The notes: generated from the letters alone by a model not told the origin. Numbered from the stretch's first letter, positions 10,170 to 50,652 are shown. The stretch is 50,652 nt of DNA from Sphingomonas sp. (GCA_031429555.1 JANOZQ010000306.1:1-50652), one strand, 5' to 3'. Made by a program: numbers and translations.

Positions 10170-10172
10170 AAA

Positions 10173-15104: not shown

Positions 15105-15117
15105 TTTCAGTCTCCTT

Positions 15118-18789: not shown

Positions 18790-18810
18790 GTCACGATCCT
18801 CTCTTCTTTT

Positions 18811-27868: not shown

Positions 27869-27951
27869 ACCTTTTGTCGCATGAATTTTGCCGGCGAAAC
27901 GCGGACACCGCGCGCCTGCCAACCTATCGCAATCTGTTTGGGGAATTTGTC

Positions 27952-33356: not shown

Positions 33357-33435
33357 CGCCTGTCGGCTTCCGCCATTTGGCCCGGGATGATGCGACCCCG
33401 TCCCGGGCCGCAACTTTTCGCAAAGGACAATCGAG

Positions 33436-33744
33436 ATGACCGACGATCCGCCAAGATCGCGTTTTGATACATTGGCTGTTGTACTTGGCGTGATTGCCCT
33501 GCTTCTCGCGGTTGCCACGGTCGTGCAAGCGGCGCAGGTCAGGGCTTTACAACAGCAGGTGCGCGATGGTCAGGGCAAGCTGGCACAAGCACAAACCATG
33601 GCCAATCTCGACAATTCGCTGATCCAGCTCATGGCCAAGACTGCTGCGGAGAATGATGACAATGCCATCCGCGATTTGCTGGAGCGCAACGGCGTCACCT
33701 TCAAACCGCCGCCCATACCCAGTGCCGACTTTTCGCAGCGGTGA
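33436..33744 (+). CDS. small single-TM coiled-coil protein
   Basis: AAGGA RBS; N-terminal TM; ends LLERNGVTF. Confidence 0.65.
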   Translation: MTDDPPRSRFDTLAVVLGVIALLLAVATVVQAAQVRALQQQVRDGQGKLAQAQTMANLDNSLIQLMAKTAAENDDNAIRDLLERNGVTFKPPPIPSADFSQR

Positions 33745-33751
33745 CAGGGCG

Positions 33752-34018
33752 ATGAGCGGCAAGGCGGGCCTTGCCGCCACGCTGACGGCGGCGGCGCTGG
33801 CGATTGTGCTGGCATCGAACCTTTTCGATCAACGGCGCGGTGCGCTCGAAATGACGGCTGTATTGGCGGGCCAGTCCAAGGCGCTGGAAGGCAATGCGAA
33901 AATCGAAGCGCAGCTTGATGCGCTCGCGAAGGGTATCAACAGCCTCGCGAAGTCAGGCAACGCGAATGCGCAGCGCATCATCTCCACGCTCAAGCAAAAT
34001 GGCGTTTCCATAAATTAG
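33752..34018 (+). CDS. small single-TM protein, apparent paralogue of the previous gene
   Basis: N-terminal TM; ends TLKQNGVSIN, similar to LLERNGVTF. Confidence 0.6.
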   Translation: MSGKAGLAATLTAAALAIVLASNLFDQRRGALEMTAVLAGQSKALEGNAKIEAQLDALAKGINSLAKSGNANAQRIISTLKQNGVSIN

Positions 34019-34026
34019 CGGCTTGC

Positions 34027-34055
34027 TGGCCCCCTTTCGGGACAGATCGCGCCTT
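34027..34055 (+). promoter_or_regulatory. candidate ECF autoregulatory promoter TGGCCCC-N16-CGCCTT
   Basis: Shared with 27840-27868. Confidence 0.5.
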
Positions 34056-34083
34056 TCTGAGTACCAATGATGGTCTTGCCACT

Positions 34084-34665
34084 GTGGCGTACGGCGGGCG
34101 ATACCTCGCGCATGACGCAGCACGGGGGCGAGTCGGGTGCAGGAGAGTATCCGCCGCGCTTCTTGCTACCTGTTATGACGAGACGCGACGCATCGCGCGG
34201 CGCATTATCGCCAATGACGGCGCCAAGCGTCCGCTTCAGGCTACCGAATTGGCAAACGAAGCTGCGATCCGGCTGATGGGCCTTGATCGCATGGAGATAA
34301 AGGACCGAGGCCATATGCTCGCAATGGCGGCACGAACGATGCGGCGCATCCTGATCGACGAAGCGCGCAAGGGGAGCGCGAGCAAGCGCCATGCGCCGAC
34401 GTTTTTCACGCGCTGGCCCGACGAGAACACCGTCGGTGACCTCATCGAACTGGTCGATCTGGATCGCGCGCTCGAGGCACTCGAAACGGTGTCGCCCGAC
34501 CATGCGCAAGTGATCGAATTGCGCTTCATGCTTGGCCTGAGTGTAGAGGAAGCCGCGCAGTCGAGTGGCCTTTCCGAACGCACGATCAAACGCCGCTGGC
34601 AGGCTGCGCGTGCTTGGCTTCTCGACTATTTGAGCGGCGATGGCGCGGTTTCCAGCTTCGCCTGA
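34084..34665 (+). CDS. ECF sigma factor, kinase-associated (ECF43/TIGR02999-like)
   Basis: YDETRRIARR, LQATELANEA, DRGH..AMAARTMRRILID.AR, VIELRF..GLSVEE, TIKRRWQAARAWL. Start uncertain; a frameshift near 34146 is possible. Confidence 0.85.
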   Translation: MAYGGRYLAHDAARGRVGCRRVSAALLATCYDETRRIARRIIANDGAKRPLQATELANEAAIRLMGLDRMEIKDRGHMLAMAARTMRRILIDEARKGSASKRHAPTFFTRWPDENTVGDLIELVDLDRALEALETVSPDHAQVIELRFMLGLSVEEAAQSSGLSERTIKRRWQAARAWLLDYLSGDGAVSSFA

Positions 34666-36952
34666 ACACGAGCGCCGGGCGCTTGCATTGTTCGAGCGTC
34701 TGGCCGATCAGCCAGACAATAGCCGACTGCGCGCTCGCCTGACGCGCAGCGAACCCGAAGCCGTGCTGACACGCCTGCGCGCACTTGAGGCAAGCGTGAT
34801 ACGCGCGGCGGGGGCGATTCCGACACTGATCCCGGGCAGCGCCGACTGCGAAGGTGTGCTGCTGCCCCCTGAGCGCATCGGCGCTTTCCGCCTTGTCGAG
34901 CGCATCGGTCGCGGCGGCATGGGTGACGTCTGGCTCGGCGAGCGCGACGACGGTCTTTACGACCAGAAGATCGCCATCAAGCTGATCCAGCGCCACGCGC
35001 TCAACCGCGCCGCCGGGGCTTTCGACGACGAACGCCGCTTCCTCGCGCGGCTCGAACATCCCAACATCGCGCGGCTGATCGATGGCGGCGTTACAGAAGA
35101 CGGGCTGCCCTGGCTCGCGATGGAATTTTTCGATGGCAAGCCGATCGACGTCGCGTGCGAAGCGCTGGGCCTTGCCGATGGCGTGCGTCTCTTCATCAAG
35201 GCGACCGATGCCGTCCAGCACGCGCATAGCCGCCTAATCGCGCACGCTGATCTGAAACCGTCGAATATCCTCGTCGCCGCCGACGGGCGGGTGAAGTTGC
35301 TCGATTTCGGGATCGCCGGTCTGATCGGTGCCGGACCGCGTGAGGGGACGGGGTCAGGACCGTTGACGCGCGACTTTGCCAGTCCTGAGCGCATCGCAGG
35401 CGGTGGACCGTCGGTCGCGGACGATGTGTTTGCAATCGGCAAGGTGCTGTCGCTTGTTCTTAACGGCCACGACAATCACGAGCTCGCAGCAATCGCGGCC
35501 AAGGCACAATCGGCCGATCCCGACGCGCGCTATGGCAGCGCCGCCGAACTGATTGCCGATCTCGACCGCTGGCGGACCCGGCTGCCGGTGCAGGCAATGC
35601 CCGACGGGTTTCGGTATCGCGCGAGCAAATTTGTCGAACGGCACCGGACCGGCGTCTTTTCGACCGCGCTTGCCTTGGCTGGCCTCACCACAACGACGTT
35701 GGTCGCAACGTCGAGCTATGTCCGCGCCGAACGCGCGCGCAGCGACGCCAGTGCCCGCTTCGACGATGCACGGAGCACGGCGCGTTATGTTTCGATCAAT
35801 CTGCTTGACGATCTTGCCTTAAGGCCAGGCACATTAGCAATGCGCGCAAAGGCGGCAGGCGTTGCTCAGCATTATCTCGACCGGCTGGTAAAGAGTACTG
35901 GCGCGCCTGAGGCGATGCGTCTCGAAGCTGCCGAAGGTCTGCTCCGTCTGGCCGCAGCGCAGGGGCGACCCGGCGTGCCTAACCTCGACCAGCCCGAAGC
36001 CGCGGTCCGCAATCTGGCCAAGGCATCAGCACTCGCGGGCAGTGTCGACAGCGTGGCGGCGCGGTGGCTGGGTATTCGCATTCGCCTCGATCAGGCGCGG
36101 CTAATCGCACAGTCCGAAAACCGGATTCCGGCGGCGCTGACGATCCTGGCCGAAGCGCGCAAACTTCTTGACCGCGATACCGACTTGCCGCCGTTGCTTG
36201 AAAGCCAATATTTCACCGAACTTGCAAATGCGCTTGAATGGCAAGGGGATTATCCGGGCGGTATCGTCGCCGCACGTCGTGCCGATGCCCTGCTCCCTGC
36301 GGTTGAGACGCGCGATATATTATTGCAGCGTGCAACGGCTCAGGATCTCCTTGCCGAGGGCATTTATTACTCGCAGCCGCAGAAGCAGGCGATTGCGCCC
36401 TATCGCAATGCGTTGGCGCTCCTCGAACGCGCCCGTGCGCTGTTTCCGGGGGACCAGATTGTCGCGCGCAGGCTCGCGCGGGCACGCTGGGCGCTGGGCA
36501 CAACTCTGGTCGACAATGGAGATCCGAAAGAAGCGTTGGCGCAGATCGAAGCATCTTCGGTTGGCGTTCGTCAGGTGCTGGCGTTCGATCCCGACGACCA
36601 GGACGCAAAGCGGATGTTGCGCATCAGCGAAAATGCGCGTGGGCAAGCGCTCGCGGCGGTTGGACGTGTCGAGGAGGGGCTGTTCCTGTTCAAGGCAAAC
36701 ACCGCTGAACGCAAGACGCTATGGCAAGCGCGCCCGGCCGATGCCCTGCGGCTTCGCGACTATATGGTGGCGGTGAAGGGGCTAGGGGACATGCAGACAC
36801 AGTTCGGTCACGCCGCCGATGGCTGTGCCACCTATCGCGACGCCCGCCGTATCATCGCTCAAATCGGCGCCACGGGACGGTTGACGGGCATGGACACGGC
36901 CAGTGTTCTTACAGACCTCTCAGAACGCGAAAAGAAATTCTGTAGAGGATGA
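34640..36952 (+). CDS. Hanks-type Ser/Thr kinase with TM and TPR-like C-terminus
   Basis: IGRGGMGDV, AIK, LEHPNIARL, HADLKPSN, DFG, FASPE, DVFAIG. Confidence 0.93.
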   Translation: MARFPASPEHERRALALFERLADQPDNSRLRARLTRSEPEAVLTRLRALEASVIRAAGAIPTLIPGSADCEGVLLPPERIGAFRLVERIGRGGMGDVWLGERDDGLYDQKIAIKLIQRHALNRAAGAFDDERRFLARLEHPNIARLIDGGVTEDGLPWLAMEFFDGKPIDVACEALGLADGVRLFIKATDAVQHAHSRLIAHADLKPSNILVAADGRVKLLDFGIAGLIGAGPREGTGSGPLTRDFASPERIAGGGPSVADDVFAIGKVLSLVLNGHDNHELAAIAAKAQSADPDARYGSAAELIADLDRWRTRLPVQAMPDGFRYRASKFVERHRTGVFSTALALAGLTTTTLVATSSYVRAERARSDASARFDDARSTARYVSINLLDDLALRPGTLAMRAKAAGVAQHYLDRLVKSTGAPEAMRLEAAEGLLRLAAAQGRPGVPNLDQPEAAVRNLAKASALAGSVDSVAARWLGIRIRLDQARLIAQSENRIPAALTILAEARKLLDRDTDLPPLLESQYFTELANALEWQGDYPGGIVAARRADALLPAVETRDILLQRATAQDLLAEGIYYSQPQKQAIAPYRNALALLERARALFPGDQIVARRLARARWALGTTLVDNGDPKEALAQIEASSVGVRQVLAFDPDDQDAKRMLRISENARGQALAAVGRVEEGLFLFKANTAERKTLWQARPADALRLRDYMVAVKGLGDMQTQFGHAADGCATYRDARRIIAQIGATGRLTGMDTASVLTDLSEREKKFCRG

Positions 36953-37327
36953 TCTGCCGCCGGCGATGAAAGCTCGTCATCGACCAAAATACAAGAAATT
37001 GTGGCTGTCACCATTCGATCGCGGATGTCGCCGCGCAAAATGATCTCAGTTGACTCAAGCGAGCCTCGCCGGGCGGGCCGGTGTCGCGCGAAGTGTGCAG
37101 GTTCGGGATAATCATGCAGCCACATCAGGTCGAACTCGTGGACGTCGAGGGTGTCGGTCCATGAAAGACAGCCTTACGTTCTGCGCCGTATGAACCAAGG
37201 GCGGGATTTGAACTGCTCGCTGCAGGCATCGACTGACCGCAATGTTTGGTGGGAGATGCTGTTAACTATTTAGGCAGTTTTTTCGGGTTATGCTGCCGTT
37301 GGCAGTTGCGACGGAAGGCGTCGTATC

Positions 37328-37470
37328 ATGGGAGTATGAGACCTCGATCCTGACGAGCGCGGACGCCGTCCTTGGAATGCAGAAAACACGGTTGGCGCGA
37401 TGCGACCTTTGAAACCGCGCGATGTGTGGGCCATCCGCTTCTTCCTCGACGAGGATCGACGTTTGCGCTT
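37328..37470 (+). pseudogene. second N-terminal remnant of the same small integrase family
   Basis: MGV*DLDPDERGRRPWNAENTVGAMRPLKPRDVWAIRFFLDEDRRLR, homologous to the region starting at 26869. Confidence 0.8.
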
Positions 37471-37897
37471 GCCGAACGAACCCAGATTTAAGCGCAGTCG
37501 CGGTGCTGAGCCGCTCCGAAATTGTCGGAGGCCCAAAGCCTTGAGAGGGCGGGCCTATTTTGAGCATGAAAACGAATGGTGCCAACGATGCTTCCTGAAG
37601 GCGAATAATCCAATACCCATCGGCTCGCGGGCGATCCGTCGGTTTGAATATTGCAATTGGACCGTTTACGCCGACGAACTCTTGCTGTGGCTTAACGTCA
37701 CCATTTATTAGAATGTGTCAGGCGAGGCGCGCCAGATCACGTGCAGCATCGCGCGAGTCTGCGTAATTGAGAAATCGAGCACACAGCTCATAGCCCACAA
37801 AAGCCATTAACCCGTTTTTTCGATGTCCGGTGTCAGACGCCCCAAGCACCAGCTCAATGATCGACAAAATTGGCGGATCACCGCTTTCCTCCCAAGC

Positions 37898-38491
37898 CTA
37901 AAGTAACGCCAGAGCACCTGATGCTCGCGTCGCCTGACCAGAGGAGAGAAATGTGAGCGAGCAATCACCGTCAGCTTCCAATGCGGCGAGCACGGCACCG
38001 ACACGCTGGCGCACGCGGCGTGCCGTTTCGGGCTTGCTCAGCCAGATCGGCAAGAGCGCCTTGCGGATGTCCGGCCCTTCGATTGCATTTACGAAACGGT
38101 CGCCGAGGAAGGGGAAGGCGTAGGTCGCCAACGTTGTGATCCACTGGACCCGATGCTTGCCGTTTTTCCAAGATGCCTTTTGCTCTTCGTGGACGCGGCG
38201 CGCGGCATCGGCAAAAGTCGGCACAGGGTCTTCAACCTTCTTCTTTTCCGCAATCGGATCGAAGCCCTGGGCAATTTGTCGGCGTAGCTCGGTTGCCTTT
38301 GCGCGTGCCTCGGCAAGCGTCATGACTTCAGTCGAACCAAGACTAATGTCACACTGATCGCCCTTGATGCGAACACGCAACATCCAACTTTGCGCGCCGC
38401 TTGCTTTCACCAGGAGCATGAGGCCGTCACCATCAACGTATCGACTTGGCTCTCGAAGGCCCTTGATGCGCGCAACGGTGAGCTGTCCCAT
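37898..38491 (-). pseudogene. P4-like integrase N-terminal part (arm-binding and core domains), truncated
   Basis: LTVARIKGL.EP.RY.DGDGL.L.V...GAQSWMLR, LAEAR.KA, WKNGKH..QW..TL..YAFP, KPETARRVRQR; no catalytic domain; starts just outside att. Confidence 0.85.
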
Positions 38492-38643
38492 GTCCAATTC
38501 CTTTCCCGGCACCCACTATCGTTCCCACCAGACCGGTGGGAACACAGGGGAACGGCAGTGGACGCCCGTGAACGTCATTCACGCGGAATATGATGAAACG
38601 AGCCGTTTTCTGTTGGATTTGGAAACTGGAAAAAGAGGGCAAA

Positions 38644-38660
38644 TGGCGGAGAGGCAGGGA
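38644..38660. repeat. att direct repeat (copy of the tRNA-Ser 3' end)
   Basis: TGGCGGAGAGGCAGGGA, identical to 50412-50428. Confidence 0.92.
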
Positions 38661-38724
38661 AACTACCCCCATATTTTAAACTTAAACAAAAACAAACTCT
38701 TAGGTGACATATGAAATTGCGAAT

Positions 38725-38744
38725 TGTAGCAGTCCCTGTAGCAG
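38725..38744. promoter_or_regulatory. putative integrase arm-type sites (TGTAGCAG x2)
   Basis: Direct pair with a 12-bp period; the same pair occurs at 50328-50347. Confidence 0.7.
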
Positions 38745-38789
38745 CGTTTTTGGCTGAGACACAGCGTGCAACAGGTTGGGCGCTAGCGA

Positions 38790-39554
38790 TCAATCGATTG
38801 TGGCGCGCTCAATCGAGCAGTTTGCGGTGGTCGCTTGTGAGTTCATAAAGCCAACACTGACATTGCGAATTGTTCGCGTGCTGCGCGCTTCCACCATCTC
38901 ATAAACTACCGTTTGTGGGCGACTGACAATGGTGCCTGAGGGTGCCTTGACCTCGCACAAGACGACGAAGTCTTTGAGGTTTGATAGGCCCCTGTTTCGG
39001 ATTGTCAGGTCGGCAATCATCACCGTTCCAAACCCTCCTCGACGCCCGCGAACCTTTACGATCTCGCCCGCTAATTCGGGATTGTCTCGATAAGGGGCCA
39101 TTGCGTCATCCTCCTTTTGTGCCTCGTTGCGCCGTCGAACATACTGTTCATTGTCGGGTGCAAGGCGAACGATGTCATTCCAAAACGAAAGCCGATCCTC
39201 GACGTTCTCGCGCCGCAATGTCTTTTCGCCAGCTAGCAAATCCGCCAACTTGCGCTTGATCTCAGCGTGCTCCTGAGCAGATCGAACATTATTTGTCGAC
39301 GCAGCCATAGGGGTTGTTGGCTGTTTCGCACTTGCTGAGCGATCTGTCGGCTTGGCGCTTTCAGCCGTAGGCTTTTCGGGTAGCGTCTTGATAAACCCGT
39401 TGGCGATTAGGGACGCCACGCCGACGACCAACAGGAACGCAGCGCCTATCAATCCGACGCAGCCTAGTCCGGCAAATCTCAATCGCCTCTTCCAACGGGT
39501 TGGACCAACCGTAGTCTCAGACGCGTTGTTGGTGTCTGTCGTGTTACTCGTCAT
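38790..39554 (-). CDS. single-TM hypothetical protein with C-terminal beta-rich domain
   Basis: Basic patch plus TM, linker, then GGFGTVMIADLTIRN...KD..V.C...SGT...GF; divergent from the XRE gene. Confidence 0.7.
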   Translation of the reverse strand: MTSNTTDTNNASETTVGPTRWKRRLRFAGLGCVGLIGAAFLLVVGVASLIANGFIKTLPEKPTAESAKPTDRSASAKQPTTPMAASTNNVRSAQEHAEIKRKLADLLAGEKTLRRENVEDRLSFWNDIVRLAPDNEQYVRRRNEAQKEDDAMAPYRDNPELAGEIVKVRGRRGGFGTVMIADLTIRNRGLSNLKDFVVLCEVKAPSGTIVSRPQTVVYEMVEARSTRTIRNVSVGFMNSQATTANCSIERATID

Positions 39555-39679
39555 CGTTACCGAACCCCCAACTTACATGTCATGTCACTGATAAGAGTAG
39601 CCGTCCTACGCGTAGGAGCAAGAACAACTACACTCATCGTCGATTGCACTTTTTCCGCTGATGTCGCCGATAGTCGACG

Positions 39680-39883
39680 ATGGAAGTTCGGCAGCGCCTA
39701 GGTCAAAACATGCGCAAGCTGCGTGAGGCGGCTGGATACACGCAAGAGGCCTTTGCCGATCTTGCGAATGTCAATCGGACCTACATATCGGACTGTGAAC
39801 GCGGCACTCGCAACCCTACGATCCTCGTGGTCGAGAAAATCGCAAAAGCGCTTGACGTTACGCCGGGCAGTCTGCTCGACTGA
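39680..39883 (+). CDS. XRE/C-protein-like HTH regulator
   Basis: LGQNMRKLR...YTQEAFA..ANVNRTYIS..ERG.RNPT...EKIAKALDV. Confidence 0.92.
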   Translation: MEVRQRLGQNMRKLREAAGYTQEAFADLANVNRTYISDCERGTRNPTILVVEKIAKALDVTPGSLLD

Positions 39884-39894
39884 GCACCGATGAC

Positions 39895-41277
39895 ATGTTC
39901 CGCGACCTTCAAGCCATGAGCATCGTTCCGACGCGCATTCGCGGAGGCATGACCGATTATCAACGCTTCTCGCGGCGCTTTCCCGAGTTCGTGACTGAAA
40001 TGATCGAAGAACGTGGCCGTTACGATGCGAAGTTGTCCCGCTTGCAACTGGTGTCAGGCAGACCACGGCACAATTTGGTCCGCAAACTCTTAGCCGACCG
40101 ACGCCTTCACCGCATTTTTGCGTTCGACGCTGTCAAGCGCACAGGCGGCTTGTGGGTCGGAACGCCCAGCGACATCGAAACCCTCGCTGAACAATTCGAT
40201 GCCTTCAATTCCTTTCACACCGAACCTGTCAGATTGCGAACTGTGTCCAAAGGAAGTGGACGCCGCGACGTGCAGGAGTTCGGACCAAGACGGAGAATGC
40301 AGCAGGCACTGGTCGCGCGACTTCTTCGTCACCTTCATCCTCCTCGTGCCAGCCAAAAGCTGTTCAACGGGGGGATGCCGATGGCCCGCAAGGCCATTGA
40401 AGACGCAGTGCGGAGCGGCAACTTGTTCGGCGTGGAGGTCGATTTTGTCGGCTTCTATGGCAGCTTGTGCAGCGAAGCCCTGCCTCAGCTACTGCGGCCG
40501 TTACCGACGTCTGTCGTCGATGCCGTGGTATGGGACGATGCTGCACGTGCCCCCACACGGTCACGCGATGCAGTCCGCCTCGAACCTCCCTCCAGCTCCT
40601 ACGAAGGGCTTTCGCTGGGTTCCGCTTGTTCTCCTATCGTTGGTGAAATCGTCATATCCGCCTTGCTGGCAGCCGCGCAGCTTGAGGATGTTGTGACCTT
40701 CGCCGACAATCTTTTCGTCTTCGGACGAACGGAGGAGGACGTGAGCGCGAAGATACAGGCCCTGCGGAACGTAATGAGAAATCACGCTTTCGGGGAGCTG
40801 GAGCTGAGGGTGTCGAGAGATCGAGGCTTCAATCTAAGTTTCGATTTCGAATTTGCCAAGCAAGCAGGCGTCCTTCGTGACGGACGCATTTACTGGGCAC
40901 CGGGCTCCCAGAAGATCACGCAATTTATGAGTTCCGACGCACAGTTCCTTACCTTCCCTGAAATCTCAAAAATCGAGCGACGGGTGGTGCATTGGCGACG
41001 TGCTTATCCCGACTGGGATGGTGGCGACGCCTTTGAGGCTGAATACTTGGCTGCTCTCGCCGTGAGGCGGTTCTACCTTGCCCGTCACCCGATGCATCTT
41101 TCAGGAGCGATCAGTGCTGTTCTGCGCGCCTATTATGAACGCTGCGTCATTGAGGCTAGTTTTCCGGGCGGATTGCACTTTTTCATTCCACAGGAGGGCG
41201 ATCCCCTCGGCGACGGCTATCTCCGGCTCACTACAGCGTTGGAGCGATTTGTTCGGCAAAACCAAGAAGCCGCTTAA
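39895..41277 (+). CDS. reverse-transcriptase-like protein with non-canonical motifs (FADN)
   Basis: RT motifs in order: PVRLRTVSKGSGRR (RT1), RRMQQALVARLL (RT2), VEVDFVGFYGSL (RT3), GLSLGSACSPIVGE (RT4), TFADNLFVFG (RT5, nt 40699-40710), FEF (RT7); then a helical C-terminal region. Confidence 0.8.
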   Translation: MFRDLQAMSIVPTRIRGGMTDYQRFSRRFPEFVTEMIEERGRYDAKLSRLQLVSGRPRHNLVRKLLADRRLHRIFAFDAVKRTGGLWVGTPSDIETLAEQFDAFNSFHTEPVRLRTVSKGSGRRDVQEFGPRRRMQQALVARLLRHLHPPRASQKLFNGGMPMARKAIEDAVRSGNLFGVEVDFVGFYGSLCSEALPQLLRPLPTSVVDAVVWDDAARAPTRSRDAVRLEPPSSSYEGLSLGSACSPIVGEIVISALLAAAQLEDVVTFADNLFVFGRTEEDVSAKIQALRNVMRNHAFGELELRVSRDRGFNLSFDFEFAKQAGVLRDGRIYWAPGSQKITQFMSSDAQFLTFPEISKIERRVVHWRRAYPDWDGGDAFEAEYLAALAVRRFYLARHPMHLSGAISAVLRAYYERCVIEASFPGGLHFFIPQEGDPLGDGYLRLTTALERFVRQNQEAA

Positions 41278-41430
41278 TTCAAAATGGCACTAGCTGTTTG
41301 GCCTGCTCCAGCGCATGTGGGGCAAAGACGGGGTCCAAAACGGCCGGAACTGGGTGGAAAGCGGTCCGTCCGCTATCCTTATGTCATATGAGCAAGCTGC
41401 CGTTCGTGATGGCGGAAAATAGGTGCGCTA

Positions 41431-42387
41431 TCATTTCCGGAATGCGGTAAATGTCACGTCGCCGCCGTAAACGTCACCCGAATAGCCGGGCACTTCAACA
41501 ACAACCTTTTTGAACCATGCAGCTTTAACGTAGTCCACTTCGGGATGAGCGGCCTTCAGGCCGCGATACACGGGATCGGTCATCAAAATTGGTTTCGTAG
41601 CGTCTTTCGTGACAAACCATTCCGACGACATGAAATGAGTTCGATAGGCATTGTTCGAATGCCGTAGTCCAGTAAGCAACGTATGATTTACGTCTTTGAC
41701 AAAGTTGTGCGGCCACTCGTCCCGCCAATTTAATTTGTCAGAATAGGGGCTATCGTAGCCAACACAGACTTTGTCCAGCGTCATTCCTTCCGATGGCTTA
41801 TTAGCAATGTCGGTCAACTTTGATGCGACGTTTGCCGGACGACCAAGCCATACAAGGTTCTTATAGTTGTGCTGCTCGACGCCGCGTCGCCTGAAGCCTG
41901 TCTTAGTAACAAGCATTTTTCCGGTATCGATGCCGATGCCACACTTAACTTCGTTACGAGTGAAGTGCTTATTGATAACATATTGCGCCGTAGAGTTCAT
42001 TAGGATTGCACAATCGACGGCCTTCCGAAAACAGTCGTTGCAATCGAATATGACCATTACACGGTCGCCAATAATGCCGCGCACATGGCCACCGTAATGG
42101 CGCGCGCACTTCGTCATGGCGCGGACGAACGCCGAATACAGCTTCGCAACCGTTTGCGGTTTGTGGGTAATGCTAAGTTCGGTCGAACGCCGAATGTCGA
42201 TATAAAGAACGCACGTATCTATCAACTTACACGCTTGTGTCTTCGCGTCCAGATTAGGGAATGTGATGGCGCCGTCGCTGGAATGCGGCACGGTAGTGGT
42301 CTTCGTCGCCGTGACAGCGAAATCATTCGCAAGAATGGTCCCGACTTCATCGGACAGTTCGACGCGCAAATCTGGCAAGGTCGTCAT
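41431..42387 (-). CDS. pycC: Pycsar nucleotide cyclase (class III cyclase)
   Basis: VLYIDIRRST, VRGIIGDRVMVIF, CGIGIDTG, LVWLGRPANVASKL; ATGA-coupled to the TM effector. Confidence 0.85.
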   Translation of the reverse strand: MTTLPDLRVELSDEVGTILANDFAVTATKTTTVPHSSDGAITFPNLDAKTQACKLIDTCVLYIDIRRSTELSITHKPQTVAKLYSAFVRAMTKCARHYGGHVRGIIGDRVMVIFDCNDCFRKAVDCAILMNSTAQYVINKHFTRNEVKCGIGIDTGKMLVTKTGFRRRGVEQHNYKNLVWLGRPANVASKLTDIANKPSEGMTLDKVCVGYDSPYSDKLNWRDEWPHNFVKDVNHTLLTGLRHSNNAYRTHFMSSEWFVTKDATKPILMTDPVYRGLKAAHPEVDYVKAAWFKKVVVEVPGYSGDVYGGDVTFTAFRK

Positions 42388-42953
42388 CGGCTGATCCAAC
42401 ACCCTATCGTATTCAGTATCGCCCCCACTGTGGGCACGGAAAACAGCGCAATCGCTATCAGCGCCGCGACCGCGCCCACGTTGAACATGCGATGCTTGCG
42501 CCGCGTGATTTTGCTGTTGATCGAAATTTGCGCTTCAAGGTCGCTCAAATAGGCGTCGGTCGGTGCGTCGCCCGTTTGAAGGTAGGCCGCACGAACATCG
42601 TTCTTGAACCCGTCAACGGTTATGTCGGCTATATCGCCGAAGAACAGCAGGTTTTGAAAGTCACCTTTTGGGTCGCCTGTGAACGTCGAAGTTTGAAGTT
42701 TGGGTAGCAGCGACGCTATCGCGATGGTCGCCGCAACGATGAACAAAGGCAGCGCCGCAAGGGTGACGTAGTGATAGCCGGATGGGATCGACTTGCCCGA
42801 CGAAAGAAGGTTCACAATGCCGACGATCCACGCGGACGCGAACGCCAGTAGCGCGGCGTTCTTCGCTTCGGCAAACCGCAGCATGTCCAACACGCGCGCC
42901 AACAGCGCAACCAACAGTTTGTCGTAGGCTTCGTCGTGATTTGTCGTTCCCAT
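42384..42953 (-). CDS. pycTM: Pycsar transmembrane effector
   Basis: LRFAEAKNAALLA, TM helices, P, NLLFFGDIA, DL..QI.INS.I..RKH..F, final TM. Confidence 0.85.
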   Translation of the reverse strand: MGTTNHDEAYDKLLVALLARVLDMLRFAEAKNAALLAFASAWIVGIVNLLSSGKSIPSGYHYVTLAALPLFIVAATIAIASLLPKLQTSTFTGDPKGDFQNLLFFGDIADITVDGFKNDVRAAYLQTGDAPTDAYLSDLEAQISINSKITRRKHRMFNVGAVAALIAIALFSVPTVGAILNTIGCWISR

Positions 42954-43017
42954 ATTGTTCGCATCGTAGCCAATGAACGGCGACGAAACAATCGTGGGAC
43001 AAACTAACGAACCAAGA

Positions 43018-43410
43018 TTAGGGTGCGCCATCCGCATAGGTCTCGCTCAACGGTCGCCATTGGCTGGTCGGGTCCATCGTCAATCGCTCAAACCATTGCG
43101 TGCCGTCGCCAAAGCGCCGGATCAGCCCTAGCCAGCGTTTTGGGCGATCAAAGCGTCCGTGAAGTGCACCATGACACCACCGGCAAATCTGGTGTGCAGT
43201 CAGCGGTGTGTCGTAAGTTTCATTATGATATCCGAGACGGTTGGAATGCGCGGGGTCGGGATGGGCGGTAAAGCCGCAAATTGTGCATCGGGTGGGTTTG
43301 AGCATAAGTCCCGTTTTCATTGCAACCCGTTGCAAGGGTATCGATGCGCGGCGTTCTTCGGGCGAGAAACCGTTATACCAGCCCATCGAAAATTGCGGCT
43401 TGTCGGTCAT
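43018..43410 (-). CDS. HNH-like Zn-binding hypothetical protein
   Basis: CTICG...YHNETY...ICRWCHGALH. Confidence 0.6.
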   Translation of the reverse strand: MTDKPQFSMGWYNGFSPEERRASIPLQRVAMKTGLMLKPTRCTICGFTAHPDPAHSNRLGYHNETYDTPLTAHQICRWCHGALHGRFDRPKRWLGLIRRFGDGTQWFERLTMDPTSQWRPLSETYADGAP

Positions 43411-43604
43411 GCCCCACTTCCTCGCAGCGAGCGTTCGATGGCGTTGGCTATACGAACGATACGGCCAATGCCTTGGCGCGCGGGCGCTAACAACGCCGCC
43501 TGCATGTCGGGCGAATTGCCCTTCGCCTGACCATCAACAACAACTGCGTGCAGGTCTTCGAGAGCCGCCGTCAAATCGGCGAACAGGCGTTGCGACGATT
43601 TCAT
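43407..43604 (-). CDS. small hypothetical protein
   Basis: ATGA overlaps at both ends (resolvase and HNH-like gene). Confidence 0.6.
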   Translation of the reverse strand: MKSSQRLFADLTAALEDLHAVVVDGQAKGNSPDMQAALLAPARQGIGRIVRIANAIERSLRGSGA

Positions 43605-44167
43605 ACCGGCAATCCTTCCGCCAGCAGGCGGTATACAGACGCTCGGGACACTCCCAGCCTAGTCGCGATGGCCGAGGCCCCTAACCCCTCTGAACGCAAG
43701 GCGCGCATCTGTTCGGCCTTCGCACGCGCCGTTGGCGCGCGACCGCGATATCGGCCTTCGGCCTTGGCCTTTGCTATCCCGGCCTTCTGCCTCTCCAGCA
43801 TCAACATCCGCTCGCATTCGGCGACAGCCCCCAGCACGGTAAGTAGCAGTCGACCCGTCGCAGATCGCGTATCGACGACGCCCCCGCCAAAATCCAATAT
43901 CCGGAGCGCAACGCTTTTAGCATCGAGCGTAGATACAATGGAAAGAAGATCAGCAGTTGATCGCGCCAGCCGGTCCAAGCGCGTCACCACCAAGCTGTCA
44001 CCCTCCCGGACAAAATCGAGCGCTGCTACGAGTTGCGGGCGGTCCATGACGGACGACACCATCTCCTCGAAAATCTTCTCGCATCCGACGGAACGAGCCA
44101 GATTTTTTTGGTCAATCGCGCCAGCTATTTGATCGGTTGTCGACACGCGGCAATATCCGACAAGCAT
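43601..44167 (-). CDS. serine recombinase (resolvase/invertase)
   Basis: VGYCRVST.DQ, GDSLVVTRLDRLARS, ERQKAGI..AK..G.Y.GR, C-terminal HTH. Confidence 0.93.
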   Translation of the reverse strand: MLVGYCRVSTTDQIAGAIDQKNLARSVGCEKIFEEMVSSVMDRPQLVAALDFVREGDSLVVTRLDRLARSTADLLSIVSTLDAKSVALRILDFGGGVVDTRSATGRLLLTVLGAVAECERMLMLERQKAGIAKAKAEGRYRGRAPTARAKAEQMRALRSEGLGASAIATRLGVSRASVYRLLAEGLPV

Positions 44168-44297
44168 CTCTAATCCCTTGGTAATTTCGTTCGACTAAGT
44201 CTAGGGGAGTGGTGCCCACAGCAAAGGGAAATCGCAGTATTTATATCTCAAAATACCATCTTATTGCATTCCGGGGCACACGACCGCTTTCCTACAT

Positions 44298-44312
44298 GTT
44301 CCAAATATGTTC
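44298..44312 (+). promoter_or_regulatory. alphaproteobacterial LexA box GTTC-N7-GTTC
   Basis: GTTC CAAATAT GTTC, 10 nt before ATG 44323, upstream of the SRAP gene. Confidence 0.8.
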
Positions 44313-44322
44313 TACATCGAGA

Positions 44323-44556
44323 ATGCCAAACGAAATGCCAGTGTCCGTCGATGACCTACGCCTGTTCCTAAGCGTCCGCCTCACCGTAGCTCCCCGGCAT
44401 TGGTTTCACGATCTATGGAAGCCTCGGACGCCCGCGACCGACCGCGATAAGGTGCGGGATCAACTTGTTGATTTCATCACCCAAGGTTGGGTGGCTTACA
44501 GGATTACGGCTGTGGAATATTCAGTGTTTGATGCGTCAAAGGACAAAAGCCTGTGA
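44323..44556 (+). CDS. small hypothetical protein (SOS-box controlled)
   Basis: MPNEMPVSVDDLRLFLSVRL..., directly after the LexA box. Confidence 0.6.
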   Translation: MPNEMPVSVDDLRLFLSVRLTVAPRHWFHDLWKPRTPATDRDKVRDQLVDFITQGWVAYRITAVEYSVFDASKDKSL

Positions 44557-44678
44557 AACGCCCCAAGCTGATTGAACTAGAATTTGCCATGCTGCTCTTC
44601 TTGATCGGTGGCGCGTTCGTCCACGGGATTTTGATGGGGCTCTTTAGCTTGGGCAAGAGCGCAGCGTCGCTTGGTTGA
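44553..44678 (+). CDS. 41-aa hydrophobic peptide
   Basis: Below the ORF-track cutoff; GTGA overlap; MKRPKLIELEFAMLLFLIGGAFVHGILMGLFSLGKSAASLG. Confidence 0.45.
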   Translation: MKRPKLIELEFAMLLFLIGGAFVHGILMGLFSLGKSAASLG

Positions 44679-44708
44679 CACCGGCAATGCGGTTGCCAAG
44701 GTGCGCAA

Positions 44709-45302
44709 ATGTGCAATCACTATAAAAATAGTCCGGAGGCGATCAGCAGTTGGGCCGAATACGCTGGTTTTCGTAAACTTGAAAATGACGTCGCGGCATC
44801 GGACGTCTGGCCAAAACGGCTTGCAACGGTTGCAAGGATTGAAAGCGGCGAGAAGACGCTCGACACCATGATCTGGGGCGTGCCGCGCACTATGCCCGGA
44901 AAGCGACCGGGGACGAAAGTCACAAAGCAAATCACAAACGTGCGTAATCTGACTAGCCCATTCTGGAAATCTATGCTGGCCAATCCTGAGCGGCGCTGCC
45001 TCGTTCCGTTCACAGCCTTTGCAGAGCCAAAGATTGGCGCTGGACGCGAGGAACACTGGTTTTCGATCAAAGGCGAGCCGGTATCGGCATTTGCGGGCAT
45101 CTGGCGGCCGTCCGAAGCTGGCAACGTCTTTGCTTTCCTGACTTGCGAGCCCAATCCGCTCGTTGCGCCGCTGCATCCCAAAGCAATGCCGGTGATCCTT
45201 CAACCGGAAGACTACCAACAGTGGCTGTCGGCGGATTATCATGAGGTCTGTTCAATGGTAGCCCCCTTCCCGTCGCAGTTGATGACAGTGGAGGTCGTGT
45301 AG
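44709..45302 (+). CDS. SRAP/YedK-family SOS-response-associated protein
   Basis: N-terminal MCN (Cys2), TNVRN, RCLVP..F.E, FAGIW, LT..PN.LV.P.H.KAMPVIL. Confidence 0.92.
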   Translation: MCNHYKNSPEAISSWAEYAGFRKLENDVAASDVWPKRLATVARIESGEKTLDTMIWGVPRTMPGKRPGTKVTKQITNVRNLTSPFWKSMLANPERRCLVPFTAFAEPKIGAGREEHWFSIKGEPVSAFAGIWRPSEAGNVFAFLTCEPNPLVAPLHPKAMPVILQPEDYQQWLSADYHEVCSMVAPFPSQLMTVEVV

Positions 45303-45395
45303 ATTTCCGATACACCTTGCATTTAATGGGACCATAGTGGTTGTTCGGTCGGTCACGCCTCATTATGCAGGGCCATCTAGCTGCGGGGCGGAAAC

Positions 45396-45839
45396 ATGAG
45401 TGACGAGTTCTTTGAAAAAATTGATGCTACGTTGGGCAAGCAAAAAAGCAAAAAAGCGAACGTCGATAATTTGGGGGATGCCAATCGGCGTTTTGTTATT
45501 TCCGTAATACCTCGGTTGGCGAAAATTGCGGAGGATTACGCATCTAAATGTGATGCGCGGGGAATGGTGGCCCGCGTAAGTCAAAACGAACGATCAATCA
45601 CGTTTTCGCTTAAATACAAGGACGGTCAAGAGCGATATGTAACGGGGCGTTGTCATAGCGAAATGAATGATAAGCTGGGGTTCGAGGAACATTTCCCCGA
45701 TAATGACGGGAAGCGCTATAAATCATCGCCAATGGCTTGGTATGATGAAAGTAGTTGGTCTGACGACCGTTTTAAAGGCGTTCTTGAAAAAACTATTGAG
45801 GATTTTGTGATCTACGCGGAAAGGTTCGGCGGGGTGTAA
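45396..45839 (+). CDS. hypothetical protein
   Basis: AT-richer 147-aa ORF; no family recognised. Confidence 0.65.
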   Translation: MSDEFFEKIDATLGKQKSKKANVDNLGDANRRFVISVIPRLAKIAEDYASKCDARGMVARVSQNERSITFSLKYKDGQERYVTGRCHSEMNDKLGFEEHFPDNDGKRYKSSPMAWYDESSWSDDRFKGVLEKTIEDFVIYAERFGGV

Positions 45840-46059
45840 TTCGTTTGCAACGTGCTTCAAGGTCGGATTGTTCACATGCTGTGAATTTCTGAACGCTCAT
45901 CCTCCGAAGATCTAGAACCTGCAATAATGTGTCTCATTGGGCGCAACTGGATTGTTGCGAAACTAAAAGTCCGCCAATCGCTTTGTCTTCCTAGGGGAAG
46001 GTCTAATAATGCAGCCGGACGGGATTAGCAGGAAGTTGTAAAAAGCGTCTCGCTACTAC

Positions 46060-47043
46060 TCATAAGCGAAATCCATCGCAGAAGTGCCGCGCAAGGAACA
46101 GCAACCACTCAATCTGGCTCTCTTGAATAATTGCGACGTTGAAGGTCGACGGCAAGCCCGATGTATCTAGTATCTCTGCAAGGTCCGAGATCGCGTACGT
46201 TGGCATCTCACCACGTGGGCCAGTCGCGGCCACGCAAGATCGGATCAACGCAATGCACAGTTCAATCCACGCGGTGTCTCCGCCAAGATACGTCCACCAA
46301 TCAATCCCGATCCGCACGGTGGCGGACACGTTCAGACCGTCTTGTTCGTAGCCAATAGACCACCCGCCCTTGTGCGACTGATGCACGACGACGCTTGTGG
46401 GTAGCACTTCTGCGATACTACGCAAAATGTGCCAATCCTTTTTGTTGGAGAGGCGTTTTGTTCCATACAAAACGCCGTAGGTGAATTCGACCTTATTCAC
46501 GCCGTGATTGGCCGCCCACGCACTTACGTGTTTGGCGACATCTTGACCGATGTTTTGGGCCATCTCATCATTCAAGCATCGGGGGCCACTTTTCAGTGTA
46601 ACTCCAAGGAAGTCTTGCGCTTCCGACTTACGTCCGTCGAGAAGGCTCTCCACGCTGTGCATTTGGCTTGGCACGACCTCCCAGCCATAAACCGGAAGAA
46701 CAACCTCCTCCACCATCCGTCCCGCTGACGTTTCCATCGAAGAAAAAACTTTGGCCGGAATGATGTCGTCTTCGATCTCGGAAACGCGTGTATACCCGCG
46801 CTTCTTTGAATAAAACATCAGCACGAAGGGACTGGTGTTGAACTTCTGGAACTTTGCCTCGGCTGTCGGAAGCCCTAAAAGGTGCGTCTCAATTTTTCTA
46901 CGAAAGCCAGTCTCCATCGCAAGCACGCGAGCACGTGCGTCCGCATCGGCGTCAATCCGCGCCAAAATAGCGTAGATCGATTGCTTTGAGATCAACAGCG
47001 GCTGCGCCGGAGGGGGAAGGTCTACGTGTCCTCTTGCCATCAC
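46060..47043 (-). CDS. type II restriction endonuclease (EcoO109I/PmeII-like PD-(D/E)xK)
   Basis: SSMETSAG..VEE...LLDG...TLKSGP..LN; overlaps the C5 methylase stop. Confidence 0.75.
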   Translation of the reverse strand: MMARGHVDLPPPAQPLLISKQSIYAILARIDADADARARVLAMETGFRRKIETHLLGLPTAEAKFQKFNTSPFVLMFYSKKRGYTRVSEIEDDIIPAKVFSSMETSAGRMVEEVVLPVYGWEVVPSQMHSVESLLDGRKSEAQDFLGVTLKSGPRCLNDEMAQNIGQDVAKHVSAWAANHGVNKVEFTYGVLYGTKRLSNKKDWHILRSIAEVLPTSVVVHQSHKGGWSIGYEQDGLNVSATVRIGIDWWTYLGGDTAWIELCIALIRSCVAATGPRGEMPTYAISDLAEILDTSGLPSTFNVAIIQESQIEWLLFLARHFCDGFRL

Positions 47044-48392
47044 TTTACCGCCATCTTTTTGACCTGCCGAACTTTTATTGCAGTGGCATATGTAGATGTT
47101 TGAAGGTCTGCGCCATCATCCCAGACGAAAGTTTCTCCGCCCTTGAACCACTGACGCGTTCGGACGTGAGATTGAATGTAGACCGTCCTGAAATGCGCTG
47201 GCGGCCTCGGGTAGGCTTGGCACTTACGCTCAGCGAGAGCATCGAGACTACGGCTAATCACTTCACCCGCCACGACGCCAAGCCGAACAGGAACTGCGTT
47301 GCCAACCTGTGCATACTGCTGCGAAGCCGTCCCGCAGAACTGCCACCCTTCCGGAAACTCTTGGATAGCTGCGTATTCCTTGAGGCTCAAGGCCCGCACT
47401 TCTCTTGGGTGACACAGCGAAGTGCTTGCGTGATTGGGCATCGTGACGAGGGTTGGGCAGGGAAGGTCAAATGATAAACGACGCCACCACCCAGAGCGGC
47501 CTCCCTTCGCGTGCCATGCCTTACCCATCGACAACTGTTGATCTGCCACATCGAGACTTCGCCAGTTCGATCCGGGCTTGATCTTCTCTAAAAATGACTT
47601 TTTCCTCGGGGAGAAATCCATGATAACTTCACCGGGATCGTTCATTCTACCAATAGCATCCCCGAGCGTCGCCCAAGGCTTCATGTCGTGCGGCAGGGCA
47701 AAAAGGTCCGCGACCTTCGGGGTAGAACGGTCAGGATTGCCATGTGTGGGATCAGGAAAGTCTATCTGCGCATTGAAGCGATTGCCGACGAATAACGCTC
47801 GCTCACGGAGTTGCGGAGCGCCATAATTGACTGCGTTCACCTCAAAGCAATCCATGTGGTAGCCAGAACCGATCTTTTGAAGGTCGTCCGCAAAAAGCCG
47901 CACAACTGACCCAGGCTGCTCTGCCTCACCAAGAGGCATCCCTCCCTTGTCCGGGCGCTCGGAGATGGGTCGGTGGCGCGTGGCTGATGACAACAATCCC
48001 CGGACGTTTTCCATGAGGAAAAAGCGCGGCTGGATTACTTCGACAAACCGTAGAAACTCCCAGAGTAGAGTGCCCCGACTGTCTTGTGTTGCTCCCCGCC
48101 GACCTGCTGTGCTGAACGATTGGCACGGTGGACCGCCCACAAGTAAGTCGAGTTCGCCCGGTTCCAATCCTACTGACTGGAGCAGTTCGAGTGGATCGAC
48201 ATTGCGGATGTCCGCCTCCACCACGATCATGCTAGCGTCGAGGAGGCCCGCCGCCTGATTTGCGCGGATGGAGGCGCAGAACGAACGCTCTTTTTCGACG
48301 GCCGCTAAAATTTTGAACCGCCCGGTCGCTTCAAGCCCCGCGTCGAGGCCCATCGCACCGGAGAACAAGGAGATAGTTGTATACCGCTTCAT
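47040..48392 (-). CDS. DNA (cytosine-5) methyltransferase
   Basis: LFSGAMG (I), GGPPCQSFS (IV), ENV (VI), PQLRER (VIII), QVGNAVP (X). Confidence 0.95.
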   Translation of the reverse strand: MKRYTTISLFSGAMGLDAGLEATGRFKILAAVEKERSFCASIRANQAAGLLDASMIVVEADIRNVDPLELLQSVGLEPGELDLLVGGPPCQSFSTAGRRGATQDSRGTLLWEFLRFVEVIQPRFFLMENVRGLLSSATRHRPISERPDKGGMPLGEAEQPGSVVRLFADDLQKIGSGYHMDCFEVNAVNYGAPQLRERALFVGNRFNAQIDFPDPTHGNPDRSTPKVADLFALPHDMKPWATLGDAIGRMNDPGEVIMDFSPRKKSFLEKIKPGSNWRSLDVADQQLSMGKAWHAKGGRSGWWRRLSFDLPCPTLVTMPNHASTSLCHPREVRALSLKEYAAIQEFPEGWQFCGTASQQYAQVGNAVPVRLGVVAGEVISRSLDALAERKCQAYPRPPAHFRTVYIQSHVRTRQWFKGGETFVWDDGADLQTSTYATAIKVRQVKKMAVK

Positions 48393-48702
48393 GGACCTGT
48401 GCTTTGTTTGGTGACAAGCGGCCTAATCCGGATCGTGAACCAAAGCCACCTCTGGGCACGCTACGCGTTGTTCGCCTATACACAACGTAAGACCCATTGT
48501 GTGTTTTGTTGCGTCGGTCCAATGCCTCGTTGCGCGCTTCGCTGTCACATTTACAACGGGTTGCAGTGCGAAAGCGCCTTTCAGCTGACGGTGTGGCGTC
48601 AAGACATTGAAATGTTAGAGGATAAAAAAGGCCGCCAATTAACAGCAGAAACGTTACAAAACCGCCAAATCCGTCAGCTAGGGACAGCCGATGCTGATTG
48701 GG

Positions 48703-50313: not shown

Positions 50314-50327
50314 TTCGCCCCCAGTTA

Positions 50328-50347
50328 TGTAGCAAGAAATGTAGCAG
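50328..50347. promoter_or_regulatory. putative integrase arm-type sites (TGTAGCA x2)
   Basis: 12-bp period pair matching 38725-38744. Confidence 0.7.
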
Positions 50348-50411
50348 TCTAGGCAGGATAACCTTTTCAAATCAAGGGTTTTTCAAACGTTTCAGTCAGT
50401 TGGAAGATTTC

Positions 50412-50501
<90 letters not shown>

Positions 50502-50652
50502 GCAGAGGACAAGGCGTGTCTAAACGGCCTTGGCGAAATCGAAGAGCGGCGCTTAGCGAAGGCAACGCAACTTGCCAAGGCTCCGTTGCGCTTGTGTTGC
50601 GGCGAATAAGCCCTAAATTGCGTTCATGCACATGCACAATGCCATTCCCAAA

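Follow-up and report, generated by a model that had tools for sequence, protein, structure and literature searches.

A reverse transcriptase-like gene with an Asp-Asn active site as putative replication initiator of a tRNA-integrated defence element in Sphingomonas

Introduction

Reverse transcriptases (RTs) serve bacteria in introns, retrons, diversity-generating retroelements (DGRs), CRISPR adaptation, repair and phage defence. The locus described here raises the question what role is played by an RT-like gene that lies in an island of defence genes and has an active site reading Asp-Asn instead of Asp-Asp. The gene occupies positions 39895-41277 of a 50,652-nt stretch of DNA from Sphingomonas sp. 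(GCA_031429555.1, JANOZQ010000306.1:1-50652), hereafter called the window, and is part of an element integrated at a tRNA-Ser gene. An earlier reading of the window, made from the sequence only, assigned it to an uncharacterised RT clade and left three options: a defence enzyme with altered chemistry, a catalytically dead sensor, or a replication or maintenance protein. Of these, the third is best supported, by the mutual exclusion between the RT-like gene and replication genes in related elements. On balance, the RT-like gene is probably the replication initiator of its element, while the exact priming step is less sure. Defence is still a rival, and the dead sensor is disfavoured because the catalytic residues are invariant.

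The RT-like protein and its fold

The features that define the gene are the following.

39895-41277, plus strand: RT-like protein of 460 amino acids, likely start at 39919, with Arg124, Asp183, Tyr188, Glu251, Asp271 and Asn272
40699-40710, plus strand: FADN motif C, codons read from the sequence

The open reading frame (ORF) is intact and its RT motifs lie where the sequence-only reading had placed them, including the changes of YADD to FADN, of PQG to SLG (40612-40620) and of the motif-B Asn to Glu (Glu251, codon 40645-40647); the codon of Asp183 is found at 40441-40443. Alignment with homologues suggests Met9, at 39919, as the true start. The first ATG is separated by 11 nt from the stop of the preceding XRE gene, and the end of the ORF by 153 nt from the stop of pycC, where about 150 nt had been noted.

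Profile searches recognise the protein faintly. The Pfam RVT_1 match has an E-value of 4e-5 and is under the curated cut-off, PADLOC returns two generic RT models only (30 and 25 bits), and the NCBIfam model group_II_RT_mat gives 13 bits where its cut-off is 300. A profile of 40 family sequences matches Cas6-RT-Cas1, group II-like (G2L) G2L4 and group II maturase chains. An AlphaFold model (pLDDT 89, pTM 0.84) has group II intron RTs as top Foldseek matches (E 1.6e-9). In VIA, it aligns with a DGR RT (8ub7; Z 21.0, root mean square deviation (rmsd) 3.3, 304 residues aligned) and with a group II maturase (Z 20.4, rmsd 4.3, 351 aligned, model residues 35-456), two scores that are tied within 1 Z, and with the CART-CAPP RT (8bgj; Z 15.2, rmsd 2.6, 187 aligned). 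With palm, fingers and thumb in the predicted structure and the motifs in order, the ORF is, as modelled, of the RT-superfamily fold. The C-terminal helices, earlier described as unrecognised, are thumb-like and not unmatched, because the maturase alignment reaches residue 456. Arg124 and Tyr188 correspond to Arg72 and Tyr115 of HIV RT, the Arg that contacts the deoxynucleoside triphosphate and the steric-gate Tyr.

A clade that keeps Asp-Asn

At E 0.001, 57 proteins including the query were retrieved among 7,996 scored candidates, as well as 425 cluster representatives, of which the best 150 were used. In the 72 closest sequences, the core clade, motif C reads YADN in 62, FADN in 8, YSDN in 1 and YADD in 1. 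The YxDD motif with both aspartates is thus not that of the family, as Asp-Asn occurs in 71/72. The deviation noted earlier is real and family-wide, with FADN as its minority form. Asp183, Asp271, Phe-Tyr 187-188 and Glu251 are each present in 72/72, which bears out that the motif-3 Asp and the first motif-5 Asp are kept, and Arg124 is found in 60/60 rows covering its position. Positions that have drifted in the core clade are, besides the third Asp, the motif-B Gln and Asn, the primer-grip Gly and a K65-like Lys. The change of FLG to FAK is present in the window protein and is no fixed motif of the family (FAK in 8 rows, FLK in 19, FLH in 9).

In 98 more distant rows, Asp-Asn is found in 66/88 and Asp-Asp in 22/88, the Gln of PQG is kept in 80/89, and Glu replaces the motif-B Asn in 63; reversion to Asp-Asp occurred in several branches. 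A FastTree phylogeny was built from 119 family members, with 9 group II intron RTs as the sole other RT class. It places the core clade (support 1.0) inside a mid clade (1.0), which lies inside the wider Asp-Asn group, outside the 9 intron RTs. The ratio of nonsynonymous to synonymous substitution rates (dN/dS) ranges from 0.085 to 0.34 for the 14 closest pairs among 30 genes, and is 0.19 between the window gene and its closest relative, L002. By these sequence comparisons, [YF]ADN is a maintained family trait under purifying selection. Because of the conserved Asp-Asn and the low dN/dS, FADN is not a recent decay, and this idea was ruled out.

L002, 63% identical to the window protein, comes from a contig whose title names a Chthoniobacteraceae metagenome-assembled genome; mis-binning or cross-phylum transfer is possible. 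The wider Asp-Asn clade comprises several hundred clusters, mostly metagenomic, that keep PQG and carry Glu at the motif-B Asn (P0073-P0196). Genomic context of these distant relatives was obtained from three loci only, of which the RT has the motif YCDN. Searches of plasmid and phage collections with the distant relatives gave group II intron or other weak RT matches, or none; viral scans gave nothing or weak unrelated RTs, and 400 genomes sampled from the class and 400 from the phylum yielded intron RTs or nothing. The core RT, which is single-copy per genome, has no match in the plasmid or phage collections. No model of the unknown-group (UG) or defence-associated RT (DRT) classes matches the ORF at E 0.1, and among 47 distant relatives the best UG score is at most 67 bits. 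The uncharacterised, conserved clade that had been proposed is thereby upheld: its members keep Asp-Asn, have the RT fold and fall in no described RT class by hidden Markov model (HMM), although published RT survey tables may list some as unclassified or G2L.

Mutual exclusion with replication genes

The RT-like gene belongs to an 11.8-kb element bounded by a 17-nt attachment (att) repeat (38644-38660 and 50412-50428). The genes that are needed for comparing elements are listed here.

38644-38660, no strand: left att repeat, a 17-nt exact copy of the tRNA-Ser 3' end
50412-50501, minus strand: tRNA-Ser(CGA), the integration site, of which 50412-50428 is the right att copy
48703-50370, minus strand: tyrosine integrase (DUF6538 and Phage_integrase)
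43601-44167, minus strand: small serine resolvase, element core gene
43407-43604, minus strand: ORF65, a small conserved protein, element core gene
43018-43410, minus strand: HNH (beta-beta-alpha-Me)-like zinc protein, element core gene, with invariant H62, H80 and H84
39680-39883, plus strand: XRE/HTH_3 regulator, best PADLOC match a restriction-modification (R-M) control protein (E 1.3e-20)

Related RT loci, 36 in number, were collected from genomes (13, mostly named Sphingomonadales), metagenomes (22) and viral contigs (1). The convergent HNH-like gene comes next in 31/31 loci with DNA beyond the RT, abutting it in most relatives, with ORF65 between HNH and resolvase; the resolvase is present in 30/31, the remaining contig ending before it. 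An XRE gene precedes the RT in 27/35 loci with upstream DNA. The coupling to XRE, as it had been described, therefore holds as a frequent arrangement, but XRE also occurs in sister elements lacking the RT, and the tighter link is that to resolvase, ORF65 and HNH. As an RT-specific partner XRE was ruled out, since RT-less elements have it as well and in locus L037 it lies apart from the RT. HNH was dropped as a dedicated partner, since it is found in all element types and, where the resolvase is missing, beside terminases.

Of 400 genomes from the host family, 1 yielded the core RT, with four candidates scored per genome, and 25 yielded a member of the HNH family. Twenty HNH-anchored regions were examined, 11 of which have resolvase and HNH without core RT. 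Left out were regions with HNH but without resolvase (L105, L106, L108-L112, L124, L131), short or differently arranged ones (L080, L081, L104, L122) and L107, a duplicate of L003; weaker HNH matches occurred in 4 genomes outside the wide-flank set. Exclusion was searched for by HMM with --max at E<0.05. The 19 RT-less elements with resolvase and HNH contain a gene like the lambda O initiator (7), a Rep_trans-like gene (8), a primase (1), only a YCDN RT (2) or nothing (1). A replication-type gene is thus present in 16/19, mostly in the slot of the RT; in the first 11 elements, the compared content lies distal to HNH or near the integrase.

Among the first 11 elements, O-like genes are found in L094, L099 and L101, two of these matching PHROG 678 at E 6e-8 and 2e-3, and a remnant in L098; over all seven O-like genes the PHROG 678 matches lie at E 6e-8 to 2e-3, and 2/7 are partial (L098, L125). 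The primase (PHROG 510, E 2e-52) lies with a DUF3631 gene inside the att sites of the L100/L113 element. The Rep_trans-like proteins form a family of 465-490 amino acids (L096, at 6051-7523; L097, L102, L121, L126, L127, L128, L130) with conserved Tyr-x-Lys and Arg-x-Glu. The YCDN RT (L095 2185-3315, L103 1664-2830, L115 11337-12653), also of Asp-Asn type and 17-18% identical to the core RT, has EGS for QGS and is located directly behind an excisionase-like HTH gene (PHROG 66, E 2e-10), the place where satellites have their primase. An unrelated YIDD RT (UG4/UG17 models, 97-98 bits) is seen at 6324-7643 of L101 as cargo in an O-like element.

Conversely, the core-RT loci have no O-like or Rep_trans-like gene by HMM and no primase/DUF3631 pair inside the element. 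The exclusion idea preceded the study of 12 further HNH-anchored loci; one contig ended and two had no resolvase, and the 9 informative ones each were of exactly one of three types, namely Rep_trans-like (5), O-like (3, one partial) or core RT (1). Fisher tests, in which kin are not independent, give p 7e-5 for all types (0/8 att-bounded RT elements against 16/19) and p 0.003 when the Rep_trans-like elements are omitted (0/8 against 8/11). On resolvase and HNH trees of 48 elements, slot labels change 15 and 16 times, compared to about 18 after shuffling. As the labels are interspersed on both trees, swaps of the replication gene recur.

Several points weigh against a replication role, which rests on this exclusion as seen by sequence comparison. 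First, with database-supported initiators only, the same test gives p 0.06 (0/8 against 8/19; kin again not independent), as searches of Pfam, PHROG and PDB gave no match for the Rep_trans-like family and its 11 homologues are all unannotated. Its unconfirmed label is our assumption, based on an Atlas lead to Phage_CRI/Rep_trans (features 0.80, TM 0.42-0.58) and a motif. Secondly, L093 is a complete element without a replication-like gene, which together with the O-like remnants in L098 and L125 indicates that elements persist without one and that the slot may simply exchange its content for cargo. Thirdly, a 20.3-kb att-bounded element (L115 and L101) carries both a YCDN RT and an O-like gene, and defence genes also enter the slot of the RT (Pycsar in the window, AbiV in L014). 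Moreover, O-like and Rep_trans-like genes often share the strand of HNH, to which the RT is opposite; of the RT loci, many are short contigs and only 8 are att-bounded; and the Gln of PQG is lost in 72/72 core sequences.

A base-paired structure inside the coding sequence

Although no space for an RNA gene is left outside the ORF, as the sequence-only reading had pointed out for a group II intron RNA, a conserved structure is present within it.

40336-40810, plus strand: conserved base-paired region in the RT coding sequence, sense strand, codons about 145-305
40379-40399, plus strand: covarying hairpin of 7 pairs, 98% paired, 4 with two-sided change
40584-40604, plus strand: 5' arm of a long-range helix
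40789-40810, plus strand: 3' arm of the same helix

In codons 140-310, synonymous sites are conserved at 1.4-2.2 times expectation in most 10-codon tiles (three tiles 1.1-1.3), compared to 1.0-1.2 in the flanks (one tile 1.2-1.3). The consensus fold of 26 genes strongly beats synonymous shuffles in four tiles of the region and not in C-terminal tiles, and 25/26 single sequences fold more stably than their own shuffles (six each). In a separate nucleotide alignment, 42 pairs were found, 23 with two-sided changes, and 94% of cells are paired; 0/500 shuffles reach that value and slid partners reach 37-50%, in a comparison that favours the structure over its controls as it was derived from the same sequences. 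The helix 40584-40601/40792-40810 has two-sided changes at 15/17 pairs, and four adjacent pairs are kept in 26/26 sequences, with CG/UA/GC swaps at three. In the window gene, 0/100 synonymous shuffles form a better arm duplex. At most 5/100 shuffles do so in 28/32 core genes and in 3/3 YCDN genes (0, 0 and 3), compared to 2/10 other RTs. The whole-region fold of the three YCDN genes is not better than that of shuffles (-245 vs. -247); only the arm duplex was.

On the sense strand, G-U cells outnumber A-C cells (467 vs. 153), which points to this strand acting as a single strand; the folded molecule is likely RNA, with single-stranded DNA as the alternative. Motif B and motif C both lie between the arms of the helix; the catalytic codons are thus enclosed in a fold that would need to be opened for translation. 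No Rfam match was found at E 1 over 38600-44500. For want of such a match and of room, a non-coding RNA upstream or downstream of the RT was ruled out. No internal structure was found in the Rep_trans-like genes; the O-like genes have weak internal structure, and no iterons were found in them.

Proposed role

If the RT-like gene is the initiator, replication could proceed as follows. The integrase would excise the element, after which XRE would allow expression of the RT. Acting in cis, the RT would bind to its mRNA at the folded central part. As a slow DNA polymerase with short products, as its Asp-to-Asn site would make it, it would synthesise a primer, i.e., a short cDNA or RNA-DNA hybrid matching the DNA of the RT's own gene. 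The internal structure would serve as the cis recognition site and the matching DNA as the origin, and the host replisome would copy the excised circle from this primer. As the genes that are replaced are initiators and not replicases, the RT most likely supplies the primer, a task for which a slow enzyme is suited, and as the primer would match the gene itself, the origin would be inside the gene. HNH, common to all element types, is not assumed to be a partner of the RT. In its widest form, the proposal is that the RT acts on its own mRNA, a single 1.4-kb sequence being gene, RNA cofactor and origin at once. This would make it a retro-initiator swappable with lambda-O-like, primase and rolling-circle initiators, and the wider Asp-Asn clade a whole class of such initiators. 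This form is tentative, plausible though short of probable.

Lambda O and RepC of pT181 have origins inside their own genes, ColE1 is primed from a structured RNA of about 550 nt, and Gly-Asp-Asn is the natural motif of mononegaviral polymerases. Ty1 RT with the same Asp-to-Asn change reportedly still polymerises and prefers Mn (PMC2148107); a further point against our proposal is that, in the same source, kpol of D211N is 223-fold lower and transposition is lost. De novo initiation of DNA synthesis in the presence of Mn, on RNA as well as on DNA, is reported for group II and CRISPR RTs (PMC10415136). The contigs of two DNA runs from one study contain no joint or excised form, which is neutral either way.

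Alternative explanations

The strongest rival is a one-gene anti-phage system resembling a DRT or retron, but with the non-coding RNA inside the ORF. The RT would use the folded stretch of its mRNA as template, and infected cells would be arrested either by the resulting DNA or by the complex. The setting suits such a function, as the host elements are defence islands (R-M, SIR2-STAND, GmrSD, AbiV, Pycsar) and many stand-alone RTs with structured RNAs are defensive. A control-protein-like XRE ahead of the RT recalls the arrangement ahead of toxic restriction genes, and the RT is dispensable for the element family (1/400 family genomes, against 25 for HNH). Against this, the RT is seen only within this element family (31/31 loci with flank), whereas other cargo varies per copy; it is missing from plasmid and phage collections and from the UG/DRT models, and a defence gene does not need to exclude replication-type genes. 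Defence by the RT is therefore considered unlikely.

A dead or nearly dead RT could instead be a scaffold binding RNA or the origin, comparable to a maturase without polymerase activity. It would then be a sensor, or else an initiator by which helicase or primase of the host is recruited. The drifted catalytic-motif positions agree with this, and since the internal helix overlaps their codons, pairing could explain part of the sequence conservation. Yet both metal-binding Asp, Arg124 and the steric-gate Tyr are invariant, and the predominance of Asp-Asn in distant relatives that also keep PQG, with reversions to Asp-Asp, is better explained by tuned chemistry, which makes a scaffold distinctly improbable.

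A selfish retro-cassette, in which the RT and its internal RNA copy themselves into elements, oust the replication gene and leave islands that do not replicate, would account for gene and structured RNA forming one unit, for the interspersed slot labels and for elements such as L093. It is very doubtful in view of the one copy per genome, the lack of terminal repeats or intron RNA at the gene ends, and a position and orientation that are fixed though the sequences are only 35-64% identical. A decaying group II intron or other functionless remnant, to which the weak Pfam score and altered motifs might point, has practically no standing next to the conserved Asp-Asn, the low dN/dS, the confident full-length fold and the covarying internal structure.

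Relation to known systems

Like pipolins (PMC11551731; see also PMC5695915), the element is integrative, flanked by att sites and loaded with defence cargo. Pipolins have a primer-independent PolB, whereas here the gene has an RT fold, is swappable with O-like, primase and Rep_trans-like genes and contains an internal structured element. The RT-like gene may work in a way analogous to the pipolin polymerase gene or to the replication modules of satellites, being a member of neither. Phage satellites and integrative elements such as P4-like ones and phage-inducible chromosomal islands have interchangeable replication modules (a paper on such elements is PMC9122126). The tRNA-targeting tyrosine integrase, the size of 9-20 kb, the defence hotspot and, in the YCDN type, the order of excisionase and replication gene are satellite-like. 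In contrast to satellites, no helper phage, packaging, capsid or terminase gene was seen among the scanned element ORFs, while one element (L037) lies in a viral contig. No RT-type replication gene was found in the searches made.

Group II RTs/maturases and G2L RTs (7k9y, 6me0, 9d4s; accessible text of PMC8632793) are the closest matches in sequence and in Foldseek, sharing the N-terminal extension, palm and thumb, and binding of the own RNA in cis is likely here too. They differ by ADD instead of ADN, by Asn instead of Glu in motif B, by their separate clade and by the location of the structure, here in the middle of the ORF. Over 38600-44500 no six-domain ribozyme was matched by Rfam at E 1, and the ORF abuts XRE, and in most relatives HNH. 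The DGR RT is the best VIA match, tied with the maturase, but no pair of template and variable repeats or target gene was found, nor avd among the scanned ORFs, and the longest direct repeat family in 36900-50652 is 30 nt at 70%. Retrons, DRT, UG and abortive infection (Abi) RTs likewise combine a stand-alone RT with structured RNA in a defence island. The present family differs in having the RNA inside the ORF, in matching no class model and in having been seen in one element family only. Retrons are marked by NAxxH and VTG and have msr-msd upstream; both motifs are absent from the family alignment, the upstream gap is only 11-35 nt, and no retron model matched. CART-CAPP CRISPR RTs with primase activity (8bgj; available text of PMC10415136) are an example of an RT fold starting DNA de novo; no cas genes or array were found in the element, and none among 100 scanned cargo ORFs of RT loci. 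The absence of retron, Cas and DGR hallmarks that had been remarked upon before is in line with these searches.

A review of prokaryotic RTs mentions no resolvase or XRE linkage in its accessible text (PMC8632793), and the mainly openly accessible literature that was searched yielded no YADN RT and no RT replication gene.

Palindrome, cargo and surroundings of the element

The remaining features of the element are given below.

43321-43334, no strand: 14-bp palindrome TGCAAC-NN-GTTGCA, sole exact copy in the 2.39-Mb assembly
48552-48565, no strand: second palindrome copy, one mismatch
38790-39554, minus strand: divergent 254-aa ORF, hydrophobic in a segment near its N-terminus, with homologues at 9 element loci and without a match in Pfam
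39627-39679, plus strand: operator-like inverted repeats before XRE, from comparing the upstream regions of 27 XRE genes
41431-43037, minus strand: Pycsar, cargo between RT and HNH (pycC 41431-42402, pycTM 42384-43037)
44709-45302, plus strand: SRAP, in the variable cargo (44709-48392)
46060-47043, minus strand: type II restriction endonuclease, in the same cargo
47040-48392, minus strand: C5 methyltransferase, in the same cargo

The palindrome is specific for the element. Allowing one mismatch, the 85.6 kb enclosed by att sites contain 17 copies and the 79.7 kb beyond them none. In 443 kb of loci there are 69, compared to 0-3 in Markov shuffles, and 8 occur in the own assembly, 2 of them in the element; a variant shorter by one base is located at 44822. 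Elements have several copies, of which one occupies a fixed site within the resolvase gene and another frequently precedes XRE by 80-250 nt. All 19 RT-less elements with resolvase and HNH contain it, and none of 8 HNH loci without resolvase do. No description of it was found in the literature, again mainly the openly accessible part. ORF65, for which no Pfam or PHROG family matched although it is conserved in nearly all elements, is a candidate palindrome binder or directionality factor. The repeats before XRE appear to resemble C-protein boxes.

The presence of Pycsar, R-M, resolvase, integrase and tRNA-Ser was confirmed. Six relatives are att-bounded, measure 9.3-16 kb and lie at tRNA genes or tRNA-derived repeats. 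Their cargo between resolvase and integrase differs in every case and is largely defence (100/192 candidate ORFs scanned); as cargo differs per copy, Pycsar and R-M were ruled out as RT partners. A second cargo slot right behind XRE holds AbiV (L014, 9072-9824) or a small Excalibur-domain protein (L004, L005, L021, L022, L035, L096). In L037, a complete att-flanked RT element (8418-18852) is found inside a 50-kb IMG/VR viral contig.

The HNH-like protein has weak matches, with a best VIA Z of 5.9 (below 8; rmsd 4.6, 87 aligned) and mostly HNH nucleases in the lower rows, a Foldseek E of 0.15 and a PHROG endonuclease at E 1e-3; its His and Cys are invariant. In L124 (9732-12282) and L131 (8310-10189), where resolvase and palindrome cluster are missing, members of this family converge with DNA methylase genes and with genes for the large terminase subunit, which may point to a role in packaging.

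Just outside the left att site, a truncated P4-type integrase with arm-binding and central domains only (37898-38512, minus strand) is probably the remnant of an earlier element. Further upstream (27736-36952), a very long Gly/Asn-rich repeat ORF overlaps a second ORF with a PEP-CTERM-like tail, with a possible frameshift near 32412-32451, and is followed by extracytoplasmic function (ECF)-sigma-like and Ser/Thr-kinase-like ORFs (labels from sequence only).

Implications

If true, an RT that replaces a replication initiator would be a new role for RTs and would link retroelements to the origins of DNA replicons. Even if the replication role fails, an RT clade in which the Asp-to-Asn change is fixed and a covarying structure overlies the catalytic codons represents an undescribed architecture, and other RTs that are regarded as stand-alone may conceal an RNA partner inside the ORF. 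For the Sphingomonadales, the core of resolvase, ORF65 and HNH, together with the palindrome and four swappable, putative replication modules, forms a common platform for defence genes.

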